From Nannocystis sp. SCPEA4 (GTDB lineage: Bacteria; Myxococcota_A; Polyangia; Nannocystales; Nannocystaceae): a stretch of 64,000 nucleotides of DNA. Positions within the stretch are counted from its first letter, which is position 1; each line of letters opens with the position of its first letter. Both the position numbers and the translations under genes were made by a program. Under the pieces are notes generated by a model. The model was not told the origin of the DNA. It worked only from the letters and a program-made list of their open reading frames with translations, and searched no databases. The DNA is taken from contig NZ_JAPNJX010000021.1 of assembly GCF_026626685.1 (NCBI RefSeq), forward strand, positions 105,329 to 169,328, in the 5' to 3' direction. This document shows, piece after piece, positions 307 to 59,557 of this stretch.

Positions 307-402
307 GCGCCTGGACGCTCGCGCGTCGCCGCGCCCGGATCGCGTGAGACCCGGGCGCTACAGTGTGCGCCGCGCCGGCTCGCGTGCAGGTATGCATGAG
401 CC

Positions 403-855
403 ATGCACTCCGCCGCGCTCCACGCCTACGCCGTCGCCGTCGCCGCCCTCTTTTTCAAACATTTCATGACCACCGCGATCCAGGGGCGCGAGCGGCTGCG
501 GACCCGCAGCTTCGCCTACCCCGAGGATGCCGCGCAGTGGCGGGGCGAGCACCACGACGGCCCGCCCTCGCCGCTGTGGGATCGCGCGGCCCGGCTGCTG
601 CGCAACGACGGCGAGAACCACGCGCTGTTCTTCGCCCTCGGCGGGGCCTACGTCGCCCTCGGCTGCCCCGACCGCCTCGGGGTGGCTTACTTCGCCGTCT
701 ACGCGGTGGCCCGCTGGGCCCACGCCGTCTTCTTGCTGTGGCCGCGCCAGCCGCACCGCAACCGGGCCTACGTCGTCTCGCTCGCGGTGCTCCTCGCGCT
801 CGCGGTGCACGTCACGATCGCCGGCCTCGGCGCGTGCGCGCTGCGGCTCGCCTGA
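403..855 (+). CDS. MAPEG-family membrane protein (microsomal GST-like)
   Basis: 150 aa with about four hydrophobic helices and the MAPEG-like signature R..NDGENH. Confidence 0.55.
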   Translation: MHSAALHAYAVAVAALFFKHFMTTAIQGRERLRTRSFAYPEDAAQWRGEHHDGPPSPLWDRAARLLRNDGENHALFFALGGAYVALGCPDRLGVAYFAVYAVARWAHAVFLLWPRQPHRNRAYVVSLAVLLALAVHVTIAGLGACALRLA

Positions 856-889
856 CGCGGACATGTCCTTTCAGACAGGCCGTGCGACG

Positions 890-1633
890 CTAGCGGCCCG
901 AGAGGAAGCCGAGGCGCTGGAACAGCGGCTCGGGGGTGTGGCGGACGACGAAGAGGATCGGGCGCCAGTACCACGGGACGAACGCGACGGCCCGGCGGCG
1001 GGCGATCGCGCGGTCGATGTCGCGGGCGACCCGCTGCGGCGTGGCGAACAGGGCGTTCTTGGCGTGCGTCGCGGTCATCGGCGTGTCGACCGGGCCGAGC
1101 TTGAGGGTGGTGACGGTGACGCCGGCCGGCCAGAGCCGACTGCGCAGGCCCTGCAGGTACACGTGGAGCGCGCCCTTGGCGGCCCCGTAGGTATAGTTGC
1201 GCGGGCGGCCGCGCTCGCCGGCGACCGAGGTGATGACGGCGATCGTGCCGCTGCGCTGGCGCTCGAGCGCGTCGGCCAGCGGGATCAGCAGCGCCAGCAC
1301 CGAGACGAAGTTGGCCTGGACGATCCGCGCGGCCTCGGCGACGTCGTGCTCGCTCCGCTGCTGGTCGCCGAGGTCGCCGTGGGCCACGAACACGAGGTCG
1401 ACGCGGCCGTCGAGCGCCGCGATGCCCTCGCGCGCGAGCGCCTCGGCGCGGGCGAGGTCGGTGAATTCGCCGCTGGCCGTGGTGACCTCGGCGCCGCGGC
1501 AGCGGGCGGCCACCGCCGCGAGCTTGTCGGGGTCGCGGCCGACCAGGTGGAGCCGATCGCCGCGGGCGGCCCAGCGCACACACACCTCGGCGGCGATCGC
1601 GGAGGTGGCCCCGAAGACGATGACGTGACGCAT
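890..1633 (-). CDS. SDR-family oxidoreductase
   Basis: Start taken at the internal Met MRHVIVFGATSAIA (Rossmann TGxxxGxG-like). YGAAK catalytic motif present. About 248 aa, typical SDR length. Convergent with the upstream gene. Confidence 0.8.
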   Translation of the reverse strand: MRHVIVFGATSAIAAEVCVRWAARGDRLHLVGRDPDKLAAVAARCRGAEVTTASGEFTDLARAEALAREGIAALDGRVDLVFVAHGDLGDQQRSEHDVAEAARIVQANFVSVLALLIPLADALERQRSGTIAVITSVAGERGRPRNYTYGAAKGALHVYLQGLRSRLWPAGVTVTTLKLGPVDTPMTATHAKNALFATPQRVARDIDRAIARRRAVAFVPWYWRPILFVVRHTPEPLFQRLGFLSGR

Positions 1634-1708
1634 GGCGGCGAAGGTAGCGCGGCCGGCGGCGGCGCGCCAGCAGGGCCTCGGTCGTCCGCTCGCAACGCCG
1701 GCGAGATG

Positions 1709-1790
1709 GACCTCAGGACATGCCCATGACGACATGCCTGATACGACATGCTCGATGAGACATTGCCGTTCGGACATGCCCAGGAGAGGC
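1709..1790. repeat. Five-unit tandem array of a 14-bp GACATG-containing repeat in the SDR promoter region
   Basis: GACATGCCCATGAC / GACATGCCTGATAC / GACATGCTCGATGA / GACATTGCCGTTCG / GACATGCCCAGG. GACATG starts at about 1718, 1731, 1745, 1759 and 1773. Confidence 0.8.
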
Positions 1791-1886
1791 GTACCGCGGG
1801 CGGAGCCCCGAGGGCCCGCCAGACTCCGAGATGCGCCGCGCGACATGTCCTTTCAGGCATCTTCGTCCGGCATTCACGTGCGCGCC

Positions 1887-4772
1887 TCAATTCTGCGGCG
1901 CCACGGCGTCGGTGCCCTCCACGTGCGCGGCGCGCCAGGCGACGGCCTCGGCGAGGTCGATCGAGCCGGCGAGGCCCAGGGCCGTGAAGGTGGCGACCGC
2001 CTGGTCGAGGAGGACGCGGGCGCGCGGGCGGTCGCGGTCGGACAGCCACAGCGCGCGGGCCAGGCCGTACTCGGCGCGGCCGCGCAGGAGCGCGTGGACG
2101 TCGGTGCCGGCGCGGATCGCCAGGGCCCGCTCGAACGCCGGGATCGCGGTGGCGAGGTCGCCGGCACGGATGCCCCACTCGCCGAGGCCGAGCAGCGAGC
2201 GCGCGACCTCGGCGTGGCTCTCGCCGAGCACGCGGCGGCGGATCGCCAGCGAGCGGTCGATGACCTCGCGCGCACGGTCGAGCTGGCCGGCGCCGAGGTA
2301 CGACTCGCCGAGGTTGTCGAGCTGGGAGCACAGCTCGATGTGGTCGGGGCCGAGGCGGCGCTCGAGCGAGCGCACCACCGCCTCGAACGCGGCGACGGCG
2401 TCGACCGGGCGGCCGCTGCGGGCCAGCGCGGCGGCGATGTTGCCCTGGAACACGACCACCAGCGGATCGTCCTCGCCGTGGGCGCGGAGGATGATGTCGA
2501 GGCCGCGGCGCCAGGTCGCCAGAGCGGCGTCGAAGTCGGTGAGGACGAAGTAGAGGCTGCCCTCGTAGCGCAGGGCGGCGGCGACCTCGGGGTGGTCGGG
2601 GCCGTAGAGCCGCTCGAGGCGGGTGCGGCTGTCCGGAAGGACAGCTTGCGAGCGGGCGAACTCCTGGCGGGCCCACAGCGCGGTGCCGAACCACTGCCGC
2701 GCGCGCGCGGTGTCGGGGTTGTCGGCGCCGTGGAGGGCGTCGTAGGCGGCGACGCTGCGCTCGATGGCGACCTCGGACTCGGCGTAGCGCCCGAGCGACC
2801 ACAGCAGCTTGCTGCGGGCGAAGTCGAGGAAAGCGGCGGCGATGTCGTCGGGCGCGCGACTCTGGGCGGCGGTGGCGATCTGCAGCCAGACCTCGGCGTG
2901 GTCGAGGCGGCCGAGGCTGTTGAGGGCCTCGACCAGGGCGGCCGCGGCGTCGCGAGCGACCGCGTCCTCGTGGCTCGCGGTGGCGATGGTGAAGGCCGAC
3001 ATCAGGCTGACCTGGGCCTCGCCGTCGCGGTGCACCAGCGCGAGCAGGCGCCCGCGCGCGAGCAGGGCCTCGGCGACCACCGGGCTGTAGGCGGCGGCCT
3101 CGGCGGCGGCGACGGCCGCCTCGGCGGCGAGCAGGCCGGCCTCGTAGCGGCCGGTGTGCTCGAGCGCGGCGACGTTGGCGAGCTGGCGGCGCACGGCGTC
3201 GACGGCGAGCGCGGTGTTGGGATCGTCGGGCGGCGGCAGCTCGGCCTGCAGGACCGGGAGGTCGGCGCAGCGCTCGACCGGCGGCAGCGCGGTGACGGCG
3301 TCGACCGCCCGCTCGACCACGCCGGCGTCGGCGGCGACCAGCAGGTCGGTGACCGCCTTGACCTCATGGACATGTCTTGAAAGACAGGCCATGCGGCGGT
3401 CGAGCAAGCGCTCCGACTGCTCGCCGCGCGCGTGGGCCTCGCAGGCCTCGCGGTGCATGGTCGCGATCGCGTCGGCGCGAGCGTCGAGGCGCGCGGCCAC
3501 CTGCGTCCACGCCTCGTCGGCGAAGTCGACGTCGGCGGCCTCGAAGGCGTCGGCGGCGGCGTCGCGGCGGGCCGGGTCCCACACGCCGATCAGCCGGGCC
3601 TCGCCGCCGCCGCAGCGATCGGGCTCGTGCAGGCTGTAGGCGGCCGCGGCGAGGCCGACCACGACGGCGAGGCCGAGACCGACCACGGCGTGGCGGGCTC
3701 GCACCTGCGGGCCGGCGAGGTCGGCCAGCAGCGCGTCCATGCTCGGGTAGCGCGCGTCGGGGGCGCGCGCGAGGCCGCGCGACAGCGCCCGGTACAGCCG
3801 CGGCGGCACGCGCGGGCCGACCTGACCGCGCTCGGGCAGGTCGGCGACCAGGACCTGGTCGCGCAGCTCGTCGACGGTCTCGCCGGCGAACGGCCGCACG
3901 CCCCACAGCGCCTCCCACAGCGCGACGCAGAAGCTGAACTGATCGGTGCGGGCGTCGACCTGTCCTCCGAGCCATTGCTCCGGGGCCATGTACGCCGGCG
4001 TGCCGGCGACGAAGGCGGTGCGCTCGATGGCCGCGCCGCCGAGCTCGCCGTCGTCGGACCGCTCGGCCTGCTCGGCGAGGGCGGCCAGGCCGAAGTCGAC
4101 CACGCGGACGCGGCCCTCGAGGTCGACGAGGACGTTGCCGGGCTTGAAGTCGCGGTGGGTGAGGCCGACGCGGTGGGCCGCGGCCAGGCCGCGACCGGCC
4201 TCGGCGAACACGGTGAGGATGTCCTGCGGGCTGCGCTCGCGGTCGTCGAGCCAGGCCGACAGCGTGACGCCGCGGACGAACTCCATGGCGATGAACAGCT
4301 CGTCGCCGATCGTGCCGGCCTCGTAGACCTGGACCACGTTGGGGTGCGACAGGCGGGCCAGCGCCTGCGCCTCGCGCAGCAATCGCGCCTGCAGGCGCTC
4401 GTCGTTGCGGTGGTGCGAGCGCACGAGCTTGATCGCCACGCGCCGCTCGAGCACCTCGTCGTAGCCGGACAGCACGACGCCCATGCCGCCCTCCCCGAGC
4501 TCGCTGAGGATCGCGTAGCGGCCGATCCGGCGCGACTGACGGATCGCCAGCGAGTCGTCGAGCGCAGCCGCGGCGCCGCGCACACTGATGCCCGAGGTCT
4601 GCTGGGCCGTGACGCTGTCCTTGCGGTCAGGCGGGGCCAGAGCCGTCTCTTCGATCGCGCTCGGGCGGGCCCGGGCGGTCACGTCGAGCGCCGGGGAGCG
4701 CCCGTCGGTGGTCGCGAGCAGGTCCACACCGGAGGGCCCGGTGCGCATGTCGTCGGGCGAGGGGGCACCCAC
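1887..4772 (-). CDS. Ser/Thr protein kinase with C-terminal TPR repeats
   Basis: 961-aa ORF. Hanks kinase motifs: GEGGMGVV glycine loop, [22 protein letters not shown] long TPR-like region follows a TM segment. GTG start at 4772; an alternative ATG lies at 4748. Confidence 0.85.
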
Positions 4773-8313: not shown

Positions 8314-11300
8314 TTAGTAATTCGCATTACCAAACGATCGTTCGCACGCGGCGGCCCGCGCGTCGGCGGTCTCCTGCGATTCGCCCAGGTGGCGCCGGCG
8401 CTCGGCGGGCTGCAGGCAGGCCTGCGTGGCCGCGACGAGGCGCGCGTGCAGATCGGCGTTCAGGCGCGGCCAGACGACGACGCGGCCGTCGGCGCCGGCC
8501 GATGCCAGGCGGTCGCCGCGCGCGTCGAAGGCGAGCGCGTGCACGCCGGCGCCGTGACCCGTGAGCACCTCGGGGCCGTCGTCGCCCTGCAGCGACCAGA
8601 AGTGGAGCTCGCCGTCGGCCGCACCGGCGGCGATCCACGCGCCCTGCGGATCCCAGGCGACGCTGTCGAGCGGCGCGCCGGCGCGACCGACCTCGCTGCG
8701 CACCCCGGTGGCCGCGGCGATCCGCACCAGCGCCCTGCCCTCGCCCGCGACCGCGAGCGCGTCGCCGGCGGGGCTCCAGGCCAGCGCGCGCAGCGGCTGG
8801 CCCAGCTCGATGAACACGGTCTGCTCCACGCGCACCAGCACGAAGCCGGTCGCGGTCACGGCCGCCAGGCGCTCGTCGACCGGCGACCACGCCAGCGCGG
8901 TGATCGGCCCGCGACCCTGGGCGGCGCGTGTCGGATCGGGCATGTTCTCCGAGACATGTCCTGGAGGCCAGATAAAAAAGCTGCCGTCGCTGCCGCCGGC
9001 GGCCAGGCGGCCCGTGCGAGGGTCCCACGCGAGCGCGGGCACGGACCGGCGATCGACCGTGGCGCGCCGGGTCGCGCCCTCGCCGACGGGCAGCCAGGTG
9101 ATCGCGCCGGAATCGTCGGTGATCGCCAGCTCCTGGCCGTCGGGGCGCCAGGCCAGCGCGAGCGCGGTGCCGGCGTGGTCGCGGCGGCGCACCGGCCCGC
9201 CGTCGACCGGCAGCAGCCACACGCTGCGGGCCCCGGCCGCCGCCAGCCTGGTGCCGTCGGGGCTCCACGCGACCGCGTGCACGGCCGCGCCGACGTCGTG
9301 CTCGCGCAGGGCCGCCGGCGTGAGCCGCCAGACCCGCGCGCTGCCGTCGTCGCTGCCGCTGACCAGGCGGACGCCGGTCGGCGCGAACGCCAGCGCCCGC
9401 ACCGGGCCGGTGTGGCCGCGCAGCACGTACGGCCGCGCCGCGCCGCCGAGCCGCCACACCCGCGCGCTGCCGTCGTCGCTGCCGCTGGCCAGCCAACCTG
9501 TCCCGAAGGCCAGGCTCGTGACGCCGCCGTCGCCGACCACCGCGAACACCCGGCGCGCGCGGCCGTCGACGCGCCAGACGTCGACGCCGCCGTCGTCGCG
9601 GCCGATCGCCAGTTGGCGGCCGGAGCGGTCCCACGCGAGCGCGCTGACGGCCGCGCCGCGGTTGCCGATCGCCAGCGCGCGGCCGTCGGCCACCAGCCAC
9701 ACCTCGCCGCGCGGCCCGGCTGCCGCGACCTGGGCCCCGTCCGGGCTCCAGGCGACGGCGGCGAGCGGGCCGCTGACGCCGCGCAGGGCGACGACCCGCC
9801 CGCCCGCCTCGAGCGAGACCTGCCCGCGCGCGTCGGTCCGCAGCTGCTCGCCGGCGGGACCGCGCCGCGGGTCGAATGCGGGCGCGCGGGCGGACGTGCT
9901 CGCCGGGCCGCCGGTGGTGGCGAACCGGCGCAGCCCGCCGGCGGCGTCGATCGTCTCGATCGCGTGGCTGTCCCAAGGGACAGGCGTGGCGCCGCCCGGG
10001 CCCGGGCTGTCCGAAGGGACAGGTGCACCTTGGCCCTGCGCTGACTTGTCCGAAGGGACAGCCTTGTCAGCGTCGGCGGTCGCGCCGCCGTCCGGACCCT
10101 GCCTGTCCCCGGGGACAGCTCCGCCCGCTGCCTCGACCCAGCGCACCGTCAGCACCGGCCCCTCGTGGCCGCGCAGGATCGCCGCGCTGATCGGCTCGGC
10201 CAGCACCCGCTGCGCCAGCGCCCCGGGGTCGTCGAGCTCGCGCAGCAGCAGCGCCGCGGTCGTCGGGTCGCGCGGCAGCAGCGAGAACGCGGCGTCGCGG
10301 ACTCGCAGCGCCTGCGCGTGGCGTTCGGCGGCGGCGCGCTCGGCCGCGAGCTCGTCGGCGGCGAACGGGACGACCTCGCCCACGCTCGTCGGCGGCGCCT
10401 CGCCCGAAGTGACCGGGCCTGCCTCGGGCTGGGCCAGGCTCACCCCGAGCGCGACCAGCCCGGCCGCGGCCGCGGCCGCTCCGCCGGCGATCAGGACCGT
10501 CCGCGCGCGTCCCGCTCCGGGCTCGCGGGCGAACCGCCGCGGCGGCTGGAGAGCAGCCAGCAGGTCGTCCATCGTCGGCCAGCGGGCGTCGGGCTTTTCG
10601 GACAGGCCGCGGGCGATCGCGCGGCGGATGCGCGGAGGCACGCGACTTTCGCGCGGAATGGGTGCGATCTCGACCTGCCCGAAGCGCGGAACCGAGCCGA
10701 ACGGGCGCAGTCCGAACAGCCCCTCGAACAGCGCCACGCAAAAGCTGAACTGATCGGAGCGCGGCTCGGCGGCGCCGTAACGCTGCTGCTCGGGCGCCAT
10801 GTAGGCGGGCGTGCCGAGGATGCTGCCGGTGCGCGTGAGCGGCTCGAGCTCGTCGTCGAGGCTCTCGCCGGCATCGAGGGCGCACGTGAGGCCGAAGTCG
10901 AGGACGCGGGCGCGGCCGCGGTTGTCGACGAGCACGTTCTCGGGCTTGAAGTCGCGGTGGAGCAGGCCCGCGTGGTGAGCCGCAGCCAGCGCCCGCCCGG
11001 CCTGCAGGTACACCATGAGCACCGCGTGCCACGGCCGCGGGCGCTCGCGCAGCCAGGCCTCGAGGGTCACGCCCTCGATCAATTCCATGGCGATGTAGAC
11101 CTGGTCGCCCCACGCGCCGACCTCGTAGATCCGCGCCACGTGCTCGTGCTCGAGGCGGGCCATCGCTCGGGCCTCGCGCAGCAGACGGGCGCGACCCTGC
11201 TCGTCGCCCTGGAGGTGCGGGTGCACCAACTTGATCGCCACGCGGCGGCCGAGTTGGGCGTCGACGGCCGCATACACGACGCCCATGGCCCCCGCCCCGA

Positions 11301-11469
11301 GCCGCCGCTCGACGCGAAAACGACCGATGGTGGTCGGCGCCGCGGGCTCGCCGAACAGTCGGCCCATGACGCGTGCGTGGAGACGATGGACGTCGACGTC
11401 GGCCCACGTGCCCGCACCTGCGCCACGGGCGGACGGTGTGTCGGGCGGCGTGTGGGGCGGCGTCGACAT
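8314..11469 (-). CDS. Ser/Thr protein kinase fused to a WD40 beta-propeller domain
   Basis: Kinase motifs: GAGAMGVVY, AIK, HRDFKPENVL, DFGL, APE. Many WD40-like units (GHTGPVRALAFAPTG, GSDDGSARVWRL). Start chosen at Met MSTPPHTPP (11469) to avoid overlapping the divergent sigma gene. Confidence 0.85.
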   Translation of the reverse strand: MSTPPHTPPDTPSARGAGAGTWADVDVHRLHARVMGRLFGEPAAPTTIGRFRVERRLGAGAMGVVYAAVDAQLGRRVAIKLVHPHLQGDEQGRARLLREARAMARLEHEHVARIYEVGAWGDQVYIAMELIEGVTLEAWLRERPRPWHAVLMVYLQAGRALAAAHHAGLLHRDFKPENVLVDNRGRARVLDFGLTCALDAGESLDDELEPLTRTGSILGTPAYMAPEQQRYGAAEPRSDQFSFCVALFEGLFGLRPFGSVPRFGQVEIAPIPRESRVPPRIRRAIARGLSEKPDARWPTMDDLLAALQPPRRFAREPGAGRARTVLIAGGAAAAAAGLVALGVSLAQPEAGPVTSGEAPPTSVGEVVPFAADELAAERAAAERHAQALRVRDAAFSLLPRDPTTAALLLRELDDPGALAQRVLAEPISAAILRGHEGPVLTVRWVEAAGGAVPGDRQGPDGGATADADKAVPSDKSAQGQGAPVPSDSPGPGGATPVPWDSHAIETIDAAGGLRRFATTGGPASTSARAPAFDPRRGPAGEQLRTDARGQVSLEAGGRVVALRGVSGPLAAVAWSPDGAQVAAAGPRGEVWLVADGRALAIGNRGAAVSALAWDRSGRQLAIGRDDGGVDVWRVDGRARRVFAVVGDGGVTSLAFGTGWLASGSDDGSARVWRLGGAARPYVLRGHTGPVRALAFAPTGVRLVSGSDDGSARVWRLTPAALREHDVGAAVHAVAWSPDGTRLAAAGARSVWLLPVDGGPVRRRDHAGTALALAWRPDGQELAITDDSGAITWLPVGEGATRRATVDRRSVPALAWDPRTGRLAAGGSDGSFFIWPPGHVSENMPDPTRAAQGRGPITALAWSPVDERLAAVTATGFVLVRVEQTVFIELGQPLRALAWSPAGDALAVAGEGRALVRIAAATGVRSEVGRAGAPLDSVAWDPQGAWIAAGAADGELHFWSLQGDDGPEVLTGHGAGVHALAFDARGDRLASAGADGRVVVWPRLNADLHARLVAATQACLQPAERRRHLGESQETADARAAACERSFGNANY
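9961..10120. repeat. Intragenic hairpin-type repeats (CTGTCC-N4-GGACAG) inside the WD40 kinase linker
   Basis: GTCCCAAGGGACAGG, GCTGTCCGAAGGGACAGG, TTGTCCGAAGGGACAGC and CTGTCCCCGGGGACAGC encode the repeated linker peptide ...VPSDKSAQGQGAPVPSDSPGPGGATPVPWDS... Confidence 0.65.
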
Positions 11470-14889: not shown

Positions 14890-14895
14890 CATCGT

Positions 14896-15260: not shown

Positions 15261-15680
15261 TCAAAATTGGATCTGCAACCCTCCGGGTGCCAGCCGGATC
15301 CGTGCGCTCGGGCGCAGCCGCTCGTGACGCCGCAGCCTGGCGCCGAAGATCCCGGTCGGGATCGCCAGCAGCGCCGCGGTCGGCAGCATCACGATCGCCG
15401 TCCAGGCCTCTCCGAACCCGTCGTTGTCGCAGTCGAGGCAGCCGGTGGCTCGCGGCCAGAACAGCCAGGCGAGCATGCTCGCGCCGGTGACGAAGGTCGC
15501 CGCCATGAACCCTCCCGAGAGTCCCGTCACGATCTGCAAGCTGCGCCGCTTGGCCCGCCAGGCCTGAAGCTCTCCGGCCGGCGTGACGACCCCGGGCGCT
15601 GGCGCCTGTGCCTGCGCGAGTCTCGGTGGCGAGGCGCACGCGAGCGCGAGAGCCCAGGTCACGCTCGCGGCCTTCGGCAT
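15261..15680 (-). CDS. Small membrane/secreted hypothetical protein
   Basis: In-frame Met MPKAASVTWALALACASP gives a signal-like N-terminus and hydrophobic helices downstream. Weak call. Confidence 0.3.
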   Translation of the reverse strand: MPKAASVTWALALACASPPRLAQAQAPAPGVVTPAGELQAWRAKRRSLQIVTGLSGGFMAATFVTGASMLAWLFWPRATGCLDCDNDGFGEAWTAIVMLPTAALLAIPTGIFGARLRRHERLRPSARIRLAPGGLQIQF

Positions 15681-15934
15681 CGATCTCGGAGTCGCCGGTG
15701 CAGCCGCGAAAATTGCGGAGCGCGAAAAAACACCACGCCGGCCCCGGAAGCCGCGGCCCCATGGACTCCAGGTCGGCGGTCGGCGACCGCACCGACCCCT
15801 CGCCGCCCGCTCGGGCCGCGACACCCGCGCCGCTTTACAGCCGTCGGCATCGGCGTTGAACTGGGAGCCATCAGCCAGGCGGCGGCGACCGCGGAAATGC
15901 CGGGCCTGCCCGCCGTGTTGTCCCGAGACCGTCC

Positions 15935-16942
15935 ATGTGCCTGCGTCCCTCGCCCTTGCCTCGCCTCGCCCGCGCTCGCGTGGCCTGGGCGATCGCGCTG
16001 GGCCTCGCGGTCGCGCCCGACGCTGCAGCCGCACCGGCGCCGCGCCCCGTGCCGGCAGCGAACAAAGCCACCGCAGCCGCCGCGGCCGCGGTGCGTCCTT
16101 CGGTCGACCTCGAGCCTGACGGCGGTGGTCGGCTGAAGCACCGCGGCCACGGCTTCACCGCGATCATCTACCCCGACGGTTCGGTCGAGTTCCGCGATCA
16201 CGGCGGCACCGCGGACATCAATTTCTTCGGCCTCGATCTGTGGCGCCAGCGCTTCCGCGAGCCCGAGCCCGAGCGTCATGCGCCGATCTGGATGGGCGTC
16301 ATCCACGATCGCCTGTGGCCGGTGCGCGGCTTCGGCCCGGCGCCGGTCCTCGCCGGTATCGGCGGCCGCTTCGGCGGGCTCGCCGACGGCCGCCGCAAGG
16401 ACCGCCACAAGAGCGCCAAGCAGGCCTTCCTGCTGGCCACCGAGCAGCTGCGGTTCCGCCTCGCCAACGCCTGGTACAAGCAGCGCCTCCACAGCGAGCT
16501 CGCCGACCTCGGCGGCCAGCTGCTCGAGGTGTGGCGCGACACCAAGTTGCCGCTGGCCGAGCGCAAGCGCCGGATCTTCGAGCGCTGGGAGGAGTGCGAG
16601 GACGCCACCACCACCCGTCGCACCGAGATCGACGCCATGCGCCTCGAGGTCGCCCGCACCGCTCGCGCCAAGATCGAGGCCTTCGTCCGCCAGGTCGCCC
16701 CGTACGGCTCGCCGCAGGCCTACACCGAGGCCGAGCTCGACCGCTTCAACGCCCGCCGCGCCGGCAAGACCCGCTTCCGCCCCTACGACGCCCCCATTGC
16801 GATCGAGGACGTGACCGCCGAGTCCGAGCTCGGCACCTCCACCGAGAAGCCGCTCGAGCCGCCGCCGCAGGAGCCCGCGACGCCGTCGATGGCCACGCCG
16901 CTCGGCCCCGCTCCCGGCCCCGTCTTCTCGCCCGCACCATGA
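15935..16942 (+). CDS. Secreted hypothetical protein
   Basis: ATG start, signal peptide (WAIALGLAVAPDAAAAPA), non-repetitive coding-like composition. 335 aa. Confidence 0.5.
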   Translation: MCLRPSPLPRLARARVAWAIALGLAVAPDAAAAPAPRPVPAANKATAAAAAAVRPSVDLEPDGGGRLKHRGHGFTAIIYPDGSVEFRDHGGTADINFFGLDLWRQRFREPEPERHAPIWMGVIHDRLWPVRGFGPAPVLAGIGGRFGGLADGRRKDRHKSAKQAFLLATEQLRFRLANAWYKQRLHSELADLGGQLLEVWRDTKLPLAERKRRIFERWEECEDATTTRRTEIDAMRLEVARTARAKIEAFVRQVAPYGSPQAYTEAELDRFNARRAGKTRFRPYDAPIAIEDVTAESELGTSTEKPLEPPPQEPATPSMATPLGPAPGPVFSPAP

Positions 16943-16950
16943 CCCTTGAG

Positions 16951-17100
16951 ACATGTCTCATCGGCCATGTCACGGAGAGCATGTCGTGGCGGACATTTTC
17001 TCGGAGACATGTCCAGATGCTCATCCCGGATCGGGCATGTCTCGGAGAGCATGTCGGATCAGACATTTCCGTGACGACCTATCCGAATGCGCATTCTTCG
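16951..17100. repeat. Intergenic array of GACATGTC-family short repeats (period about 12-14 bp)
   Basis: GAGACATGTCTCATCGGC / CATGTCACGGAGAG / CATGTCGTGGCG / GACATTTTCTCGGAGACATGTCC ... GGGCATGTCTCGGAGAGCATGTCGGATCAGACATTTCC. Confidence 0.7.
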
Positions 17101-23577: not shown

Positions 23578-25311
23578 TCAACCCGACCGCGCCCACGCCA
23601 CGAACGCCTCGAGCGCCGCCAGCGGAGCCTCGTCCGCGATCACGCGGGCCAGCGCCGCCAGCAGCTCCGGCTCCGCGTGGCCATCCAGGCGGGCCCGGGC
23701 CACGTTCGCGGCCAGCTCCCAGCCGGGAGAGCGCACCCCCCCGGCCAGCATCTCGCGCAGCTGCGCCAGCGCATCGGGCACGACCTCGGGCGCGTGCGCG
23801 TGCGCGTAGAAGCACAGCTCGCAGCGCAGCGGCGACCCGGCCTCCGACAGCTCGAGCGCCCGCGCCAGCAGCTCGCGCCCCTCCGCGCCGCGTCCCTCCG
23901 CGAACAGCAACCGGGCGAAGTTGCCGAGCAGGTTGGCGTCCTCCGGATCGGCCGCCAGCGCGCGGCGGTACAGCGCCTCGGCGCCGGCGACGTCGGCGAA
24001 CGCCGCCGCGCGGAAGTTGGCGTAGTTGCCGAGATGGTGCGCGTCGTCCGGCGCGGCCGCGATCGTCGCCTGGTAGCAGGCGTCGGCGCGCGCCCGATCG
24101 CCGCGGATCAGCGCCAGGAAGTTGGCGAAGTTGCCGAGGTGATCGGCGTCGTCCGGTGCGGCCGCCAGCGCCTGCTCGTAGTACGCCTCGGCGAGGTCGT
24201 GCTCGCCGCACACGTCGCTCAGGAACGCCGCGAAGTTGCCGAGCATGTCTGCATGGTCCGGCGCGTCGGCCAGGAACTTCTCATAATAACCGCGAGCCAG
24301 CGGGTTGCCGGCCGAATGTAGCGCCGTGGCGAAGCTCGCCAGCCGCGGCGAGTCGACCGGCAGCGCCTCCGCGAGCAACGCGAACAACGGGTCGCTCGCG
24401 GCGGCCGGCGCCATGTGTTCGCGCAACCGCGGGAACAACCCCCCCAGCGACGCCCCTGTCGGCTCGACCACGATCGCCACCCGCAGCAGCGCCAGCGCGC
24501 GCCCCCACGCCTGCGCCTCGATCGCCGCCTCGACGCCGCGGAGGAGCGCCCGCGCCTCGAACCCCGCGTCGACCAGCAGCTCGCGCGCCAGCGCCACGTG
24601 GGCCGCGTGCACCGGCCCGCGCTCGCTCGCCTGTTCGTGAAGCGCCAGCCGCGGGTGCTGCGGGATCGGCCCCGACAGCGCGAGTACCTCGTCCGCGAAC
24701 GCCACGCGCGCCGCCTCCTCGCGCACCGCCGTCAGCTCGTCCTCGCCGAGCGGCAGCGGGCCGTACACCACCCGCGCCGGCAACTCCGCCACACGACAGC
24801 GGCGCAGCAGCTCGGCCGTGCCCGCCACCTGCTGTTGATTGAGCGCCGTCAACACCACCACGCGATCGGCGAGCGCCCGCACCACCCGCTCCGTCGCCCG
24901 CGACAGCCCCGCCGGGCCGTCGACCAGCACCACGTCGGCGATCTCGGCGGCGTCGAGGCGGCGCCGCAGTTCGCCCAGCACCGCCGCGCGCTCGCCCTGC
25001 GGCCACGCGTCCAGACGATCCCAGTACGCCGCATCGAGCCGGCCCGCCCGCAGCACCCGCAGCGTCCCCGCGATCGGCACGCAGCACCCTGCCATCGCCG
25101 CGGCTTCCGGCACCCCCGCCGTCATCAGCTCCACGAGCCCGTCGCCGTCGCCGCCGGCCAGCCGCGACAGCCCCGGCGACTCGAGATCGGCGTCGACGAG
25201 CAACACCCGCAGCCCACGCGCCGCCAGCACGCGCCCGACGCCCAGCACCGCCAGCGTCCTGCCCACGCCGCCGTGAGCCGACCAGAACGTGATGAACGGC
25301 GCCGCCTGCAT
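23578..25311 (-). CDS. ParA/MinD-like P-loop ATPase domain (deviant Walker A lacking both lysines) fused to TPR repeats
   Basis: N-terminus FITFWSAHGGVGRT...VLLVDADL resembles KGGVGKT...D-D of ParA/MinD with K replaced by H and R. C-terminal half is TPR-like (AEAYYEQALAAAPDDADHLGNFANFL repeats). Confidence 0.6.
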   Translation of the reverse strand: MQAAPFITFWSAHGGVGRTLAVLGVGRVLAARGLRVLLVDADLESPGLSRLAGGDGDGLVELMTAGVPEAAAMAGCCVPIAGTLRVLRAGRLDAAYWDRLDAWPQGERAAVLGELRRRLDAAEIADVVLVDGPAGLSRATERVVRALADRVVVLTALNQQQVAGTAELLRRCRVAELPARVVYGPLPLGEDELTAVREEAARVAFADEVLALSGPIPQHPRLALHEQASERGPVHAAHVALARELLVDAGFEARALLRGVEAAIEAQAWGRALALLRVAIVVEPTGASLGGLFPRLREHMAPAAASDPLFALLAEALPVDSPRLASFATALHSAGNPLARGYYEKFLADAPDHADMLGNFAAFLSDVCGEHDLAEAYYEQALAAAPDDADHLGNFANFLALIRGDRARADACYQATIAAAPDDAHHLGNYANFRAAAFADVAGAEALYRRALAADPEDANLLGNFARLLFAEGRGAEGRELLARALELSEAGSPLRCELCFYAHAHAPEVVPDALAQLREMLAGGVRSPGWELAANVARARLDGHAEPELLAALARVIADEAPLAALEAFVAWARSG

Positions 25312-25440
25312 GCCTGCGACCTCTTCTACCCGCGTGCGCCCCGCGCCGCACGCCGCCCCTGTCCCCATACGGCGTGCGGTTTCACCCGTCGCGCCCCGCA
25401 GGCCCGCCTGCCCGCGACGAGTCCCACCGTCTCCGAGTGC

Positions 25441-25625
25441 ATGTCCATTCGGACATGAATCTATTCACATGTCCATTTAGACATGTCTTGTCAATTTCGA
25501 CGAGTCCATTCCTACGGACATTGTCTATGACTCCATGAACATATGTCCATTCAGGCACATTTCTGCGCCCCTCGACGGGCCGGGCCGCGCTGCGAAAGCC
25601 TGTCCGTAACGACATGTCCTACGAA
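25441..25625. repeat. AT-rich island made of tandem GACATGTCC-family repeats, upstream of the ParA-TPR gene
   Basis: CATGTCCATTCGGACATGAATCTATTCACATGTCCATTTAGACATGTCTTG...GACGAGTCCATTCCTACGGACATTGTCTATGAC...ATATGTCCATTCAGG...CGACATGTCCTACG. Local GC is far below the window average. Confidence 0.7.
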
Positions 25626-28063
25626 TCACCCGTCGGTGCACGCCCTCGCCGATCCTCGCGCGCCCACCTCGCCAGCGCCGCCAGCAGCCCCAGCGCTGCC
25701 AGCGGCCACAAGGGCGCCAGCGGATCGCGACGCGTACGCCGTTCGGCCCACGTCGCGGCCCGCTCCGGCGCCCACGCGAAGCGCAGCGATCCGGGCGGCG
25801 CCGGCGGCAGCCCGTGGCGTGCGCGCACCTCGGGGGCCAGCTGGGCGAACGGCTCCTCCGCGCAGTTCACCTGCGCCAGAACCCGCGTCTCGACGTGCGC
25901 CGCGAAGTGCTCCTGGCGATCGCTGCCGGGCGGAGGCAGCGGCGCGCGCAGCCCCTCGAGCCGCGCCTCGCGGGCCGGCTCGCCCGCGTGCTCGAGCGCC
26001 CAGCGGCGGCACAGGTAGCGCACGTGCCACAGCGACATGCGCTCGCGCTGCCCGAGCAGGTTGTCGCCGATCTTGCGCCAGCGATCGTGCCACGGATGCG
26101 GCAGCGGCAGATCGTCCGCGCGCTGCGGCCCCTCGTCGTAGCGGTGGCGGACCCCGGCCGCGTCGACCACCGTCGTCCGCACCAGCATCTGATCGCGCGG
26201 TGGATTGGGCGCGAACATCGACCACACCTGGCTGGTGTAGCTGAGCTCGATCCACGGCCCGACCAGCGCTCGCACCGGCCCACGCCACGGCAGGCTCGAC
26301 CACGCCGGCAGCTGCCACACCAGCAGCGCGACCACGTGGTACGCCACGAGCCCCCCGGCCGCCAGGCGCCCCGCCGGCCCGTGCGCCCACGGCTCGACCA
26401 GCGCCGTCGTCTCGCTGCGACGGCGCCGCGCGGCTCGCCAGCCGACGATCGTCAGACCTGTCCCTGCGGCCAGCCAGGCCGCGTGCCACGCCCGCGGCCC
26501 GGCGCCCGCGGCCAGCGCCACCAGTCCGCCCGCCAGCACCACCCCGCCCGCGGCCGCGATCGCCCACCCCGGCAGCGCCGCCGCGTCGCGGTGCAGGTGC
26601 GGCAGCGACGGGTCCTCCGCCGCGATGGCTGTCTCTCGGCCCAGGTGCTCGGGGACAGGTACGCGCACACGCGCCAGCCCGCGCAGCGCTCGCTGCAACA
26701 TCGCAATCGCCCACGGACCCGCCCCGCACACCAGATAGGCCGCCAGCGTCGCCGGCGCGAACGCCCCCACGGCCAGCAGCGCGTGGTTGGCGAGGTGGAA
26801 CAGCGCCCCGAACCCCAGCCACCAACGCGGCGCCAGAGGTCCTGCGGCCAGGCGCCGCCCCACCGCCGCCGCCCGGGGCCCCGCGATCGCCACCGCCGCG
26901 GCGATCGCCGCCAGCACCGCCAGCGTCGCCGCGCGCTCGAAGCCGCCGGGATCACCTGACTTTTCCACCAGGTCCTGAGGGACAGCCGCGGCCAGCCCCG
27001 CCGCCACCGCGATCCCGGCCCAGCACAGCCGCGCCCCCGCGCTCGCGGCCCCCTGCAGCGCCGGCGCTCCGCTGCGCGCCACGGCCCGCAGCGCCAGCCC
27101 GACCAGCACCAGCGGGAACAGCCGCTCCCACCACTCCACGCCCCAGCTGGCCAGGCGCAGCGGCCACGGCCCGACCGCAGCGATCACCGCGGACATGTCC
27201 CAACGGACATATGTGTCGCGCGACAGCACCAGCAGCAGCGCGTCGCCCGAGCGCCACGTCGGGCCCGACTTCGCCCAGCCGTTGACCGCGTAGCACAGCG
27301 CCAACTGGCCCGCGATCAGCGCCTGCGGCCACGCGGGGATCCGGCGGTAGATCGCCGCCAGCCCCCGCGGCGCCGCCGGCGACGGTGCCAGGCCCGCCCC
27401 GGCGCCTGGTCCCGAGGACATGCTCAAAAAGCCACGTCGTCGCAGGGCCCGGCAGCGCCGCCAGTTGTCGACGCTGAACGCCGCCCCGCAGCGCGACCAC
27501 ATCAGCAGGAACAGGAACGCGCAGAACACCTGCTCCCCGCCCCAGTGGGCGTCGCCGCGGCGCAGCAGCCCGGCGTACAGCAGCCAGCAGAGGATCGTGC
27601 TGACGCGGGTGCGCCAGCCCAGGGTCAGGCCGAGCGCCGCGACCACCAGCCCCGCGAAATGCAGCCGCACCGCCGTCGGGCTGTCCCCGAAGTACAGCGG
27701 CGACCAGCGCCCGCTGATCACGAACTCGAGCAGCGCCGCCAGGTCGCGCGGGCCCGCGGGCTCGCGCACGCCGTCGCCGAAGCCGATCGTCGCCCCGCGC
27801 CCCATGAGCTCCGGCACCACGGCGCGCGGCAGCAGGCCCTCGTCGGAGAATAGATAGTCGAGCAGCGGCGCGATCTCGACCGTTGTCGCCAGCAGACAAC
27901 AACCGAACGCGATCCGGAACAGCGCCAGCGGTCTCGGGTCGACCGCACGCAGCAGCACCCGCCGCAGCGCCTCACGGTGCAGCGCCACCAGCCCGACAAG
28001 GCTCGCCGACAACAGGACGAGCGCCAGCGCGAGCGCGAAAGACACCGCGCGAGTGTATCCCAC
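25619..28063 (-). CDS. HTTM-domain (vitamin K-dependent gamma-carboxylase-like) polytopic membrane protein
   Basis: 814 aa with many TM helices. N-terminal LALFRIAFGCCLL...IAPLLDYLFSDEG resembles the HTTM domain start. GTG start. Confidence 0.55.
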   Translation of the reverse strand: MGYTRAVSFALALALVLLSASLVGLVALHREALRRVLLRAVDPRPLALFRIAFGCCLLATTVEIAPLLDYLFSDEGLLPRAVVPELMGRGATIGFGDGVREPAGPRDLAALLEFVISGRWSPLYFGDSPTAVRLHFAGLVVAALGLTLGWRTRVSTILCWLLYAGLLRRGDAHWGGEQVFCAFLFLLMWSRCGAAFSVDNWRRCRALRRRGFLSMSSGPGAGAGLAPSPAAPRGLAAIYRRIPAWPQALIAGQLALCYAVNGWAKSGPTWRSGDALLLVLSRDTYVRWDMSAVIAAVGPWPLRLASWGVEWWERLFPLVLVGLALRAVARSGAPALQGAASAGARLCWAGIAVAAGLAAAVPQDLVEKSGDPGGFERAATLAVLAAIAAAVAIAGPRAAAVGRRLAAGPLAPRWWLGFGALFHLANHALLAVGAFAPATLAAYLVCGAGPWAIAMLQRALRGLARVRVPVPEHLGRETAIAAEDPSLPHLHRDAAALPGWAIAAAGGVVLAGGLVALAAGAGPRAWHAAWLAAGTGLTIVGWRAARRRRSETTALVEPWAHGPAGRLAAGGLVAYHVVALLVWQLPAWSSLPWRGPVRALVGPWIELSYTSQVWSMFAPNPPRDQMLVRTTVVDAAGVRHRYDEGPQRADDLPLPHPWHDRWRKIGDNLLGQRERMSLWHVRYLCRRWALEHAGEPAREARLEGLRAPLPPPGSDRQEHFAAHVETRVLAQVNCAEEPFAQLAPEVRARHGLPPAPPGSLRFAWAPERAATWAERRTRRDPLAPLWPLAALGLLAALARWAREDRRGRAPTGDS

Positions 28064-40744: not shown

Positions 40745-40820
40745 CGCCGGGCTCTACGCGCCGGTCGGGCCGCCTGTTCCCGCCCGGCCGTATTCTCAGA
40801 TGTCCATCCGGACATGTCCT

Positions 40821-54532: not shown

Positions 54533-54839
54533 CTGCCTGGTTCCCCCTGCGACCTGTAGGGATGATGCGCAGCAGGCAGGCACGCAAACCCCGTTGTGTC
54601 CCGCATCACCAGCGCCGCGCCGCTCTCCATGAAGATGTCCCTTCACACATGTCCGAAAGACATCCTCGCAAGCCGACACACCTCGCCGCCGCACGACGTT
54701 CACCACCGCTTCGGCCCGCCGCCACGCGCCGCACGTCGTCGCGGTCCACCACGCAGCTGCACCTCGCCGGTTCACGGCACCGACCTCGAGTCCAACCTTC
54801 GCCTCGCGCCTCGCAGCCATGCGCTCCCATCTCGGCGCA

Positions 54840-55180
54840 CTCCCCGGTGGACCTGGATGACGCCGCGCTCACTGGCAGATCTGCACCACCCCGACGACGT
54901 CCCCATCTCCATCCGCGCCTCGCTGCCGTCCGCTCGGATCTCGGCACACGCACCTGTGCACCTGGATCACGCCGCTCTCACTGGCAGATCTGCACCACCT
55001 CGACGACGTCACGTCGCGCTCACTGGCAGATCTGCACCGCCCCGACGACGTCGCCTGTCTCCATCCGCGTCTCGCGGCCGCGCCTCGCTCGGCGCTCATC
55101 CGCGGCTCCGCACCCACACCATCCGCGCGCCTCGCTCTCGAGCTCCGCCTCGCCATCGTCCGCTCGCGGTTCGGCGCGCT
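54840..55180. repeat. Complex direct repeats in the spacer between the glycine-rich paralogs
   Basis: GCGCTCACTGGCAGATCTGCACC(A/G)CC(C/T)CGACGACGTC x3 (about 54865, 54971, 55015), plus repeated GGA(C)CTGGAT(G/C)ACGCCGC and CCATCTCCATCCGCG blocks. Confidence 0.7.
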
Positions 55181-59452: not shown

Positions 59453-59557
59453 AGCGCCCCGGGCCGCCCGGCAAAAGCCGGCCCGCTGCGAGACGGCGTT
59501 CCCGGCGCGTCCGGGTTGCGCGGAAGCGGCAGGGCGGTTAGGGTGCCCGCCACCGAA

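Follow-up and report, generated by a model that had tools for sequence, protein, structure and literature searches.

The window analysed here is a 64,000-nucleotide stretch of the genome of Nannocystis sp. SCPEA4 (contig NZ_JAPNJX010000021.1, positions 105,329 to 169,328). It carries a short palindromic motif, which is found in the spacers between genes and also inside genes, among them those for two kinases, an HTTM protein, a predicted amino-acid dehydrogenase, a TonB_C protein, an M16 subunit, a membrane protein, a VWA protein and an exporter (Table 1).

The motif has a 14-nt unit that can be read in two ways, either as the 10-bp palindrome GGACATGTCC followed by a 4-nt spacer, or as a hairpin TGTCC-N4-GGACA with a 5-bp stem. 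The core palindrome GACATGTC occurs 18 times, against 0.77 expected from shuffles of the window, an over-representation of about 23-fold. The 10-bp palindrome is found 4 times (0.04 expected) and the hairpin 16 times (0.01 expected). Spacings from one CATG to another show sharp peaks at 14, 28 and 42 nt (23, 13 and 8 pairs). CDS interiors carry motif matches at about one-seventh of the density found elsewhere, and the copies within genes are a minority population of a mainly intergenic motif family.

The motif is dense in the window and in the core species N. exedens, N. punicea and N. pusilla, and is sparse or absent in the deeper MAGs labelled 'Nannocystis sp.' and in Sorangium, Byssovorax, Myxococcus and Kofleriaceae. 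The comparison covered about 155 kb of Nannocystis DNA in total, at loci that are not all independent because some are orthologous to each other. The window motif belongs to a family of short iterated palindromes that is specific to the core Nannocystis lineage. No Rfam 15 family reached its gathering score anywhere in the window, and a literature search found no description of the palindrome. The host genus has genomes of 11–13 Mb, without canonical terminators.

Table 1 Copies of the palindromic motif described in the text, with PWM scores where given
Position	Strand	Motif	Location	Peptide in gene frame	PWM
860..889	.	two-unit element GACATGTCCTTTCAGACAGGCCGTGCGACG, 30 bp	begins 5 nt past stop at 855		
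1714..1866	-	intergenic array, sense-strand units GGCAUGUC	between TPR-kinase stop (1887) and adh_short start (~1633)		
3366..3391	-	two-unit copy GGACATGTCT-TGAA-AGACAGGCC	kinase-TPR linker of gene 1887..4772	C-L-S-R-H-V-H-E	17.9
8936..8963	-	two units in 14-nt register, GGGCATGTTC / GAGACATGTCC	WD40 blade loop of gene 8314..11469	G-H-V-S-E-N-M	
9969..10118	-	four CTGTCC-N4-GGACAG hairpins, 39-57 nt apart	WD40-kinase linker	(A/P)-V-P-x-D-x, all in one frame	
16947..17072	+	representative intergenic array, ~10 units, exact 14-bp period	from 5 nt past stop codon at 16942		
25435..25618	-	arrays filling spacer; TAG stop overlaps first unit	spacer begins at HTTM stop codon		
27189..27216	-	GGACATGTCC + second unit (also TGTCC-CAAC-GGACA)	HTTM gene 25619..28063	Y-V-R-W-D-M-S	
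27414..27427	-	single unit GAGGACATGCTCAA	HTTM gene 25619..28063	L-S-M-S-S	13.8
34604..34645	+	weak two-unit match	Leu/Phe-dehydrogenase-like gene 33921..35009		8.4 and 11.9
40136..40177	-	units 28 nt apart	TonB_C ('AgmX-like') gene 39284..40744	L-H-M-S-Q	11.1 and 15.3
41577..41590	-	single strong unit TCGGACATGTTCGA	M16 subunit 40821..42140	E-H-V-R	18.1
50090..50131	-	three units in register, including exact hairpin TGTCC-ATCG-GGACA	gene 50013..51071	H-V-P-M-D-R-V-V-G-T-L-P-K	
50539..50560	-	exact hairpin TGTCC-TTCG-GGACA	gene 50013..51071	A-V-P-K-D-M-P	
50949..50976	-	ACACATGTAC + palindrome GGGACCTGTCCC	gene 50013..51071	F-G-T-G-P-E-V-H-V	12.0; second unit 8.1
58831..58870	-	hairpin variant TGTCC-CTTC-GGACA, flanks GGGACAGCTG.../...CAGCTGTCCC	VWA gene 56570..60079	L-S-E-G-T	
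63502..63515	-	GGGACATGTCCG	RND/SSD-type exporter 62835..63953	S-D-M-S-H-G	18.4

Arrays downstream of stop codons

The motif lies mainly in spacers immediately past stop codons, both co-directional and convergent. Here the units lie head to tail, up to about ten of them with an exact 14-bp period. On PGAP gene calls the arrays begin 25–130 nt past stop codons; in the window they begin mostly within about 60 nt of a stop, and several overlap the stop. Six divergent spacers in the PGAP gene calls hold a single motif match, placed on a start codon. One divergent spacer has a copy (46797) and its N. exedens counterpart has several, which counts against the RNA-level role proposed below.

The spacer arrays fold far better than shuffled sequences, and the sense strand folds better than the antisense. 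The array at 16947 is predicted to form a long RNA hairpin of -68.2 kcal/mol on the sense strand (z -5.1), against -60.8 on the antisense; for the array at 1714 the values are -37.9 (z -4.2) and -21.3 (z -0.3). The base pair flanking CATG is G..T rather than A..C on the sense strand by 15:4 in the window and 14:5 at four other loci. This G·U-type bias, 29:9 when pooled, tracks gene direction on both strands, and the background sense-strand skew is 1.05 and 1.04. It is absent from coding copies (15 vs 15, and 0 G·U vs 1 A·C). An origin of the spacer asymmetry in transcription-associated A>G mutation is conceivable.

On the grounds of position, folding and wobble asymmetry, we infer that the arrays function in RNA, as long hairpins at 3' ends or between cistrons. 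Canonical hairpin-plus-U terminators are lacking from this genome, and the likely role of the arrays would be in 3'-end formation or in protecting the mRNA upstream. The conserved array sequence implies a sequence-specific factor, which would read the arrays. No intrinsic (Rho-independent) terminators were found at gene ends, a consensus scan of the window giving 8 sites against 4.2 expected. The arrays carry no T run, and are not the G+C-rich hairpin plus U tract of an intrinsic terminator.

It is the sequence that is strictly conserved, rather than the pairing with compensatory change, and this would fit a protein-binding site on DNA equally well, as would the perfect palindrome and the fixed 14-bp register. 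The motif might then resemble the cyanobacterial HIP1, as the site of a dimeric DNA-binding or nucleoid protein, or of a methyltransferase or repair system with CATG or ACATGT in its target, kept by selection or biased repair in genes and spacers alike. The 5-bp half-sites of TGTCC-N4-GGACA and the abutting 14-bp units do resemble operator arrays, the degree of over-representation is appropriate, and the lack of wobble asymmetry in coding copies points the same way. A CATG/ACATGT core is a typical methyltransferase target. This DNA-level explanation is possible, but we lean against it, since the RNA- and gene-level signals are foreign to a HIP1-type motif: the sense-strand G..T excess follows the direction of transcription, the difference in folding between sense and antisense is large, and there are tandem 14-bp arrays. 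The strong preference for post-stop positions and near absence from divergent promoter spacers are likewise unlike HIP1 (PMC5861425).

The arrays turn over quickly, with fast gain and loss of units between species, and an orthologous spacer may hold an array in one species and none in another. Among related spacer repeats the periods are 85 and 101 nt, neither of them a multiple of 3. The element at 860 shows presence/absence polymorphism, with one clean 30-bp gap in N. pusilla (locus L081), where the alignment block as a whole shows about 92% identity. Such behaviour might be expected of a selfish element of the RPE or Correia type envisaged in the first-pass annotation, or of a MITE: a mobile palindrome that inserts in frame and is tolerated in surface loops. 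However, neither terminal repeats nor a target-site duplication are visible at the 860 indel, no transposase was found among the scanned subset of window ORFs, and the 14-nt unit is far below the size of any known transposable element.

Copies within genes

The first-pass annotation listed twelve single copies of the motif, each embedded in frame in a gene. Motif-like sequence is present at all twelve positions, and all twelve peptides translate exactly as given in the frame of the host gene. The matches are strong at most sites (3369, 8953, 27192, 27414, 40164, 41577 and 63505, together with the exact hairpins at 50112, 50547 and 58845), moderate at 50949 and weak at 34601. The description as single copies needs amending, in that several are really two or three units in 14-nt register (3366/3380, 8936/8950, 27189/27203, 40136/40164, 50090/50104/50118 and 50949/50963). 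It was also proposed that the motif reads as D-M-S or (G)H-V according to strand. In fact the reading frame decides, because the motif is a palindrome.

The simplest explanation of such copies would be chance or ordinary coding constraint, with matches produced by the amino acids and codons that a genome of 73% G+C tends to use. This was examined with 300 synonymous-codon shuffles, in which every protein sequence was kept and gene starts were corrected. Within CDSs there are 4 copies of GACATGTC against 0.87 expected, 9 of TGTCC-N4-GGACA against 0.24, and 4 pairs of matches 14 nt apart against 0.05, so that the register is kept inside genes. There are 14 matches with a PWM score of at least 12 against 4.3 expected, PWM counts being biased slightly upward because the PWM was trained on this same window; the exact-word counts are free of that bias. 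None of the 300 shuffles reaches any of the observed values, which confirms the in-gene excess and rules out chance for the motif family as a whole.

The codons lead to the same view. The A of ATG falls at codon positions 1, 2 and 3 in 17, 8 and 6 of the 31 coding matches in the window. Common codons suffice for the D-M-S frame, but 14 of the 31 matches are in frames requiring rare codons, and 28% of third codon positions in coding motifs are A or T compared to 8.9% elsewhere, a threefold enrichment. Ordinary coding constraint therefore does not explain the copies, and we regard it as extremely improbable as a general account. Chance is possible for individual weak sites: 13 of the 30 in-CDS matches with a PWM score of at least 10 are expected from shuffles, and the weak sites (34601 and several matches scoring 8–10) vary between species, within shuffle expectation.

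There are nine perfect coding hairpins and only 12 variants with one mismatch, a ratio that speaks for constraint on the nucleotide sequence. Nearly all coding hairpins share one frame, nnT GTC CNN NNG GAC, encoding V-P-x-D, which is the sole hairpin frame that avoids A/T-ending codons after the first codon. The only in-CDS hairpin in another frame is that of the VWA gene.

The in-gene copies belong to the same family as the spacer motif, and most are not RPE-like insertions. At most sites compared with homologues, the motif occupies pre-existing codons with length unchanged, and is made by rare A/T-ending codons or by amino-acid replacements. At seven listed sites (34601 in the dehydrogenase, 41577 in the M16 subunit, 27192 and 27411 in the HTTM gene, 63505 in the exporter, and 50091 and 50531 in the membrane protein) homologues of 60% identity or below have the same length, and these sites thus lack the insertion by a multiple of 3 expected of a Rickettsia palindromic element (RPE), the likeness first suggested. 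Nor does the size agree, the unit being 14 nt and the discrete element at 860–889 being 30 bp, where roughly 100–150 bp would be expected. Within the genus, no indel was found at in-CDS PWM matches between 33.8 and 58.5 kb relative to N. exedens or N. punicea (of 17 matches, 14 could be aligned to both species and 3 to N. exedens alone), or at 3369, 2631 and 8953 relative to N. pusilla or N. exedens.

Individual sites illustrate how the motif is accommodated. In the HTTM protein the alignment at 27192 is gapless, with RWDMS in place of the RLDWH conserved in other Nannocystaceae (TGG CAC to ATG TCC; N. bainbridge has DLS), within one of the few stretches where the protein diverges specifically in this clade. 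At 27414, also gapless, LSMSS replaces LSEPG or LSAPG of other Nannocystaceae. The exporter site is gapless against 18 distant homologues, D-M-S aligning with D-L-D or E-L-E. In the M16 subunit E-H-V-R is written with the rare codons GAA CAT GTC CGA, identical at loci L001 and L002; no gap falls within the IEHVR segment, of which HVR is retained by orthologues that are about 50% identical. The dehydrogenase aligns without gaps to solved Leu/Phe dehydrogenases (PDB 7vid and 1bxg), and this weak match may be due to chance. N. exedens and N. punicea both lack the whole TonB_C gene at the syntenic position.

The copies at 50091, 50531 and 41577 are maintained as nucleotide sequence despite deep divergence. 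The two membrane protein sites are gapless and keep the DNA hairpin in orthologues at 60% protein identity, the first with its rare codons GCT, ACA and TTG and the second as gcTGTCCcgNaGGACAtgcc, conserved in L001, L002, L087 and L088 including a rare GCT codon. Other coding copies decay by synonymous change. The copy at 3366, in which 6 of 8 codons end in A or T, is found at unchanged length in N. pusilla and N. exedens, but in the latter TCA>TCG and AGA>CGC erode the motif while leaving the peptide as it is. Among close species synonymous-site conservation of coding motifs is only weakly elevated (G/C third positions conserved 0.92 in motifs vs 0.80 outside, p = 0.03). Presence in ORFs by codon choice, with conservation between species, matches reports for HIP1 (PMC5861425); strong sites are the same in three species, although some sites decay.

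The proposal of in-frame insertion is supported at two of the listed sites. GHVSENM at 8953 coincides with a 5-aa insertion relative to orthologue P0009 and more distant orthologues, with point changes only in L081 and L082. GTGP at 50941, encoded by GGGACAGGTCCC, adds 2 aa relative to L087 and L088, which have no motif there; the CATG unit at this site differs among the three Nannocystis species.

The WD40-kinase linker

A third insertion, which the first-pass annotation had not listed, lies in the linker of the WD40 kinase. The insert (9970–10105) is found only in Nannocystis, being absent from orthologues P0008, P0009 and P0011 onward, and is expanded in N. exedens. There are 3 exact hairpins in L081, 4 in the window and 8 in L082, representing three species, and the N. 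pusilla linker has one 39-nt unit missing. The linker is a hypervariable, copy-number-variable in-frame repeat built from the hairpin, with in-frame periods of 21, 39 and 105 nt. Lineage-specific peptide inserts that vary in copy number do arise in this kinase. Where the element lies in a loop or a disordered linker it seeds expansion in frame, with replication slippage as the presumed mechanism.

The linker, together with the two short insertions and the gain and loss in spacers, is what a selfish element would lead one to expect. However, tandem change with these periods is more typical of slippage than of transposition, and the seven coding sites without length change and the lack of indels within the genus argue in the same direction. 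We therefore consider a selfish element unlikely.

Relation to known repeats and possible function

The closest analogues of the Nannocystis palindrome are REP elements and HIP1. Like the REP, BIME and REPIN sequences of Enterobacteria and Pseudomonas, it consists of short, imperfect, species-specific palindromes in many copies, concentrated extragenically, mostly 3' of genes, in post-stop and operon spacers, predicted to form RNA hairpins on the transcript and turning over fast between relatives. REPs stabilise upstream mRNA and attenuate transcription. Unlike REPs of about 35 nt, the Nannocystis unit is a 10-bp palindrome or 14-nt hairpin, and its units run head to tail at an exact 14-bp period rather than as the inverted pairs of REPIN/BIME. 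There is no GTAG-type 5' tetranucleotide, no RAYT-type (IS200/IS605-like Y1 transposase) domain among the scanned subset of window proteins, and a substantial non-random population inside ORFs.

HIP1 (GCGATCGC) is a similar perfect palindrome of 8–10 bp, lineage-specific and more than tenfold over-represented (PMC5861425, PMC4390886), as is the perfect 8-bp palindrome GACATGTC. It is reported to be hyper-abundant, with a mean above one motif per gene in some cyanobacteria, and to be conserved within and between ORFs, and no support was found for an RNA role (PMC5861425). Like the Nannocystis motif it enters ORFs by choice of codons, and its conservation between genomes exceeds the neutral expectation. 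A link to methyltransferases with GATC and CGATCG as targets has been reported (PMC4390886). The Nannocystis motif differs in being about 7-fold denser outside CDS interiors, and in forming post-stop 14-bp tandem arrays with a transcription-oriented wobble bias.

Other comparisons are more partial. RPEs are also palindromic repeats in frame inside protein-coding genes, and the copies in the WD40 kinase and at 50941 similarly add lineage-specific loop or linker residues. RPEs are, however, 100–150 bp and as far as is known always insertions relative to orthologues, whereas most coding copies compared here show no length change. In-frame minisatellites and MIRU-type VNTRs resemble the WD40-kinase linker, whose tandem repeats are multiples of 3 and vary in copy number between species and close relatives, but the linker repeats are seeded on a genome-wide palindromic word and not on a locus-specific one.

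A DNA uptake sequence, a word that biases natural transformation towards DNA of the same species, was also considered. The DUS of Neisseria and USS of Haemophilus are likewise over-represented short words that are found in ORFs and also past genes, where inverted pairs of them lie in terminators, and the Nannocystis motif shares their many copies, in-frame coding copies and hairpin-forming copies past stop codons, as well as being lineage-specific. But the known uptake sequences are non-palindromic 9–12-nt words without phased tandem arrays, and the Nannocystis word is a perfect palindrome in arrays. To our knowledge competence has not been documented in Nannocystis, and we think this explanation very unlikely.

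The best explanation overall, in which we have roughly even confidence, is a lineage-specific iterated palindrome whose post-stop arrays act on RNA and whose in-gene copies are mostly written into codons. More tentatively, and with rather less expectation of being right, we suggest that the motif is recognised by a putative sequence-specific factor, as a mark of mRNA 3' ends and of certain internal positions across the Nannocystis transcriptome, or else of the chromosome, under selection strong enough to write it into conserved coding segments. If this were true, the cost of the mark would be rare codons and even replacements (DWH to DMS in the HTTM protein, and GAA CAT GTC CGA in the M16 subunit); coding sequence would carry a second, genus-specific layer of information, and the motif would be the counterpart of HIP1 in a GC-rich genome, with an RNA-level read-out.

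There are practical consequences. The ATG of the motif misleads gene callers, several long ORFs in the window 'starting' inside a copy. For strain typing, the WD40-kinase linker offers a VNTR that is ready for use, and the conserved rare codons at 50091, 50531 and 41577 are defined sites where synonymous recoding could reveal function. REP, HIP1 and other short iterated palindromes count among the most poorly understood elements of bacterial genomes, and the Nannocystis family unites traits that are usually separate, namely REP-like arrays at mRNA 3' ends, HIP1-like copies in ORFs and minisatellite-like in-frame expansion. A factor that reads the motif, if found, would reveal how 3' ends are formed or the chromosome is marked in these myxobacteria.

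The repeat unit and its distribution

The in-gene sites picked out by the first-pass annotation share a palindromic core, GACATGTC. When word counts in the window were compared with dinucleotide shuffles, this core was found 18 times against 0.77 expected, GGACATGTCC four times against 0.04, and the hairpin TGTCC-N4-GGACA 16 times against 0.01. The distances from one CATG to another peak sharply at 14, 28 and 42 nt, and in the intergenic spacers as many as about 10 units follow one another head to tail at exactly 14 bp. A 10-bp palindrome with a 4-nt spacer and a 5-bp stem with a 4-nt loop are two descriptions of one 14-nt unit. The symmetric position weight matrix (PWM) reads (G/A)GACATGTC(C/T), with A/T enriched 6-8 nt from the centre, which bears out the AT-rich flanks originally noted; the G+C content of the 64-kb window is 73%. 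A sixth stem pair of the hairpin, inspected by eye, gave no consistent covariation (8 Watson-Crick pairs, 1 wobble and 7 mismatches). A second common core variant, GGACCTGTCC, has CCTG for CATG and is found in spacers and in genes (28793-28802, 50965-50974). Rfam gave no match for the family, and no relevant description of a Nannocystis palindrome or of GACATGTC was found in the paper collection searched. The family differs from uptake sequences in that its word is palindromic.

The window, N. exedens, N. punicea and N. pusilla are rich in the exact words and in the 14-nt periodicity, which are sparse or absent in the deeper 'Nannocystis sp.' MAGs, Sorangium, Byssovorax, Myxococcus and Kofleriaceae. 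A class II aaRS encoded in the window shares 88-89% identity with its counterparts in N. exedens DSM 71 and N. punicea FL3, with which the locus is syntenic at about 85% nucleotide identity. N. pusilla is 92-97% identical to window positions 1-22.5 kb, and the HTTM protein matches one annotated in Nannocystis sp. SCPEA4 at 100% identity. No identical-protein records were found for the window M16 protein and P0140.

Three gene-sized blocks of the window have no counterpart at the matching syntenic position in the relatives examined, which were N. pusilla and N. exedens for the signal-peptide block and N. exedens and N. punicea for the other two (see table). At the place of the HXXEE block, N. 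punicea has a paralogue of window 29188-30421. A RAYT or other transposase in the signal-peptide block, of about 800 bp, was rejected, the ORF being a small signal-peptide protein. Integron attC-like cassette boundaries were also rejected: the block edges do not match arrays, and an integrase is absent.

Window-specific blocks and ORFs started spuriously at the motif
Feature	Position	Strand	Class
Small signal-peptide protein, followed by an array after its stop codon	15007-15800		Window-specific block
TonB_C ('AgmX-like') gene	39260-40845		Window-specific block
HXXEE protein and unknown ORF	48243-50013		Window-specific block
Spurious ORF	358..864	-	Motif-started
Spurious ORF	890..1846	-	Motif-started
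Spurious ORF	15659..16954	-	Motif-started
Spurious ORF	40312..40815	-	Motif-started

Copies within genes

All 12 peptides listed for the in-gene sites translate as given, and Pfam shows the host genes to be genuine. Gene starts were corrected from homology and from the PGAP annotation of N. pusilla and N. exedens, and the CDS interiors were compared with 300 synonymous-codon shuffles that preserved every protein. The interiors contain four copies of GACATGTC (0.87 expected), nine of TGTCC-N4-GGACA (0.24), 14 PWM matches of at least 12 (4.3) and four pairs in 14-nt register (0.05). These values were reached by none of the 300 shuffles, and therefore the coding copies are real at the DNA level. 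Ordinary coding constraint, the alternative under which orthologues would keep the same peptides without the DNA motif, is not the explanation of the coding copies, since the counts exceed those of all synonymous shuffles. The coding copies are a minority population, the motif being about 7 times denser outside CDS interiors. Many of the copies first described as single are mini-arrays of two or three units. The match at 34601 in the amino-acid dehydrogenase is weak (PWM 8.4, 11.9) and may be of chance origin; that at 50949 is moderate (12.0).

Whether the motif is read as D-M-S or G-H-V had been attributed to strand, and is instead set by the reading frame. The codon-position distribution, proposed as a genome-wide check, was obtained for the window matches: the ATG is at codon position 1, 2 and 3 in 17, 8 and 6 cases respectively. 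In nine of the ten coding hairpins the frame is nnT GTC CNN NNG GAC (V-P-x-D), which, first codon aside, is the only one compatible with a GC3 of about 95%. A/T makes up 28% of third codon positions in motifs, compared with 8.9% outside. Synonymous-site conservation among close species gives a weak signal: G/C third positions are conserved at 0.92 in motifs and 0.80 outside (p = 0.03), and A/T third positions at 0.67 and 0.58, which is not significant. There are nine perfect coding hairpins to 12 with one mismatch, where chance would give roughly thirty times more variants.

The first-pass annotation likened the copies to in-frame insertions, which would give lineage-specific peptide inserts. 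On alignment with homologues, most of the listed sites are unchanged in length. The dehydrogenase site is gapless against solved Leu/Phe dehydrogenases, as is the exporter site (63505) against 18 distant homologues; a PDB search with the exporter gave no match. Sites 50091 and 50531 of the membrane protein are both gapless, and their hairpin DNA is kept in orthologues at 60% identity, down to the rare codons GCT, ACA and TTG. The M16 site (41577) is gapless and encodes I-E-H-V-R with the rare codons GAA CAT GTC CGA; orthologues of about 50% identity keep the peptide, and three species share the same DNA sequence here. In the HTTM protein, 27411 has LSMSS for LSEPG with no gap, and 27192, also without a gap, has RWDMS in place of RLDWH, conserved in nine other Nannocystaceae. 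The latter site falls where the protein has one of its few patches of clade-specific divergence, and N. bainbridge (P0145) has there D-L-S for D-M-S, from the GACCTGTCC variant, with GGACCTGTCC in place of the CATG form. Within the genus, no indel was seen at the in-CDS matches of 33.8-58.5 kb against N. exedens or N. punicea (14 of 17 aligned in both species, the other three in N. exedens only), or at 2631, 3369 and 8953 against N. pusilla or N. exedens. The peptide at 3369 is identical in N. exedens, where two rare codons have gone back to common ones; this copy is decaying.

Two listed sites are longer. Relative to the orthologue P0009 and to more distant ones, the WD40 kinase has an insertion of 5 aa that coincides with site 8953, and 50941 (G-T-G-P, from GGGACAGGTCCC) is two residues longer than in the motif-free orthologues L087 and L088. 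The clearest case of length change is a site not listed earlier, the WD40-kinase linker at 9970-10105, which has four CTGTCC-N4-GGACAG hairpins, all read as (A/P)-V-P-x-D-x. The linker insert is absent in orthologues outside core Nannocystis, and its length varies widely among Nannocystis species, with three exact hairpins in N. pusilla, four in the window and eight in N. exedens. One 39-nt unit was lost between the window and N. pusilla, and the N. exedens linker repeats in tandem and in frame with periods of 21, 39 and 105 nt. Lineage-specific peptide inserts exist, but they are exceptional; the original interpretation is therefore partly supported, and coding constraint is also inadequate.

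In its coding habitat the family most resembles HIP1, a hyper-abundant palindrome that is conserved within ORFs and has no settled function (PMC5861425), and which has been linked to a methyltransferase (PMC4390886). In disordered linkers it is similar to an in-frame minisatellite. It has neither the size nor the obligatory insertion that define RPE.

Other repeats were also seen. Coding tandem repeats of 102 nt at 13457-13660 (WG_beta_rep gene) and of 105 nt at 23914-24273 (gene 23578..25368) resemble ordinary protein repeats and are unrelated to the motif. A 109-bp direct repeat at 54805-55052, present in 1.9 copies with 86% matches and containing a 42-bp repeat of its own, is also unrelated to the palindrome family; it lies in and around what seems to be the spacer separating genes 53483..54600 and 55180..56100.

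Arrays in intergenic spacers

According to PGAP gene calls, arrays in co-directional and convergent spacers start 25-130 nt past stop codons. Most arrays in the window begin no more than about 60 nt from a stop codon and several overlap it (e.g. 860, 15261, 16947, 25615, 40821, 61363). The divergent spacers of the window hold one motif copy; six divergent spacers in PGAP calls hold a single match, on a start codon. A promoter element or transcription-factor regulon was rejected on the grounds that divergent spacers are nearly motif-free and arrays adjoin stop codons; no sigma-70-like promoter consensus was found in window 1-20000.

In orthologous spacers the number and sequence of array units vary greatly among species, some arrays being present in one and absent in another. 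The two-unit, 30-bp element at 860-889 is cleanly missing in N. pusilla. Longer spacer tandem repeats with one hairpin copy per unit are found at window 56400-56609 and in two loci of Nannocystis relatives, L002 (12300-12560) and L001 (10083-10760). Their periods are 101 and 85 nt, neither a multiple of three, and about 100 nt by eye in L001. The L001 and L002 repeats enlarge spacers whose window counterparts are short, among them the one between the divergent ProRS and FAD-oxidoreductase genes.

RNA folding of the arrays gives long hairpins that far exceed those of shuffled sequences, and the sense strand is the more stable of the two: -37.9 kcal/mol (z -4.2) against -21.3 (z -0.3) for antisense at 1705-1790, and -23.2 against -11.7 at 56180-56255. 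The sense strand folds better because the pair that flanks CATG is asymmetric in a wobble-type manner: on that strand it is G..T rather than A..C by 15:4 in the window and by 14:5 across four further loci, and the asymmetry tracks gene direction for plus- and minus-strand genes alike. The background sense-strand skew of spacers is 1.05 and 1.04. Coding copies have no wobble asymmetry, and the RNA argument therefore concerns the spacer arrays alone. An intrinsic terminator requires a U tract, which the arrays lack; canonical hairpin-plus-U terminators were not found at gene ends, window 1-20000 showing no excess and the few matches lying elsewhere. In this habitat the closest likeness is to REP elements, without the inverted pairs that define REPINs. 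The arrays may thus act in a REP-like manner, as 3'-end or intercistronic RNA structures.

Motif ATGs and gene calling

Many long ORFs begin at a motif ATG. The ATG/CAT at the palindrome centre gives spurious ORF starts on both strands (860-867, 1842-1849, 16950-16957, 23515-23520, 40811-40818). A start-codon or leaderless-mRNA signal was rejected, as the true starts lie elsewhere according to homology and to the PGAP annotation of N. pusilla and N. exedens. Neither CsrA-type GGA sites nor a Shine-Dalgarno reading of GGAGACATG fits, the spacing to the ATG being wrong and the GGA lying within stems. The WG_beta_rep gene and an RsgA-like GTPase gene are joined by an ATGA stop/start overlap at 13780-13783; the PWM match there (15.5) was rejected as a motif copy and is ordinary translational coupling. 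Gene callers are easily misled by the motif.
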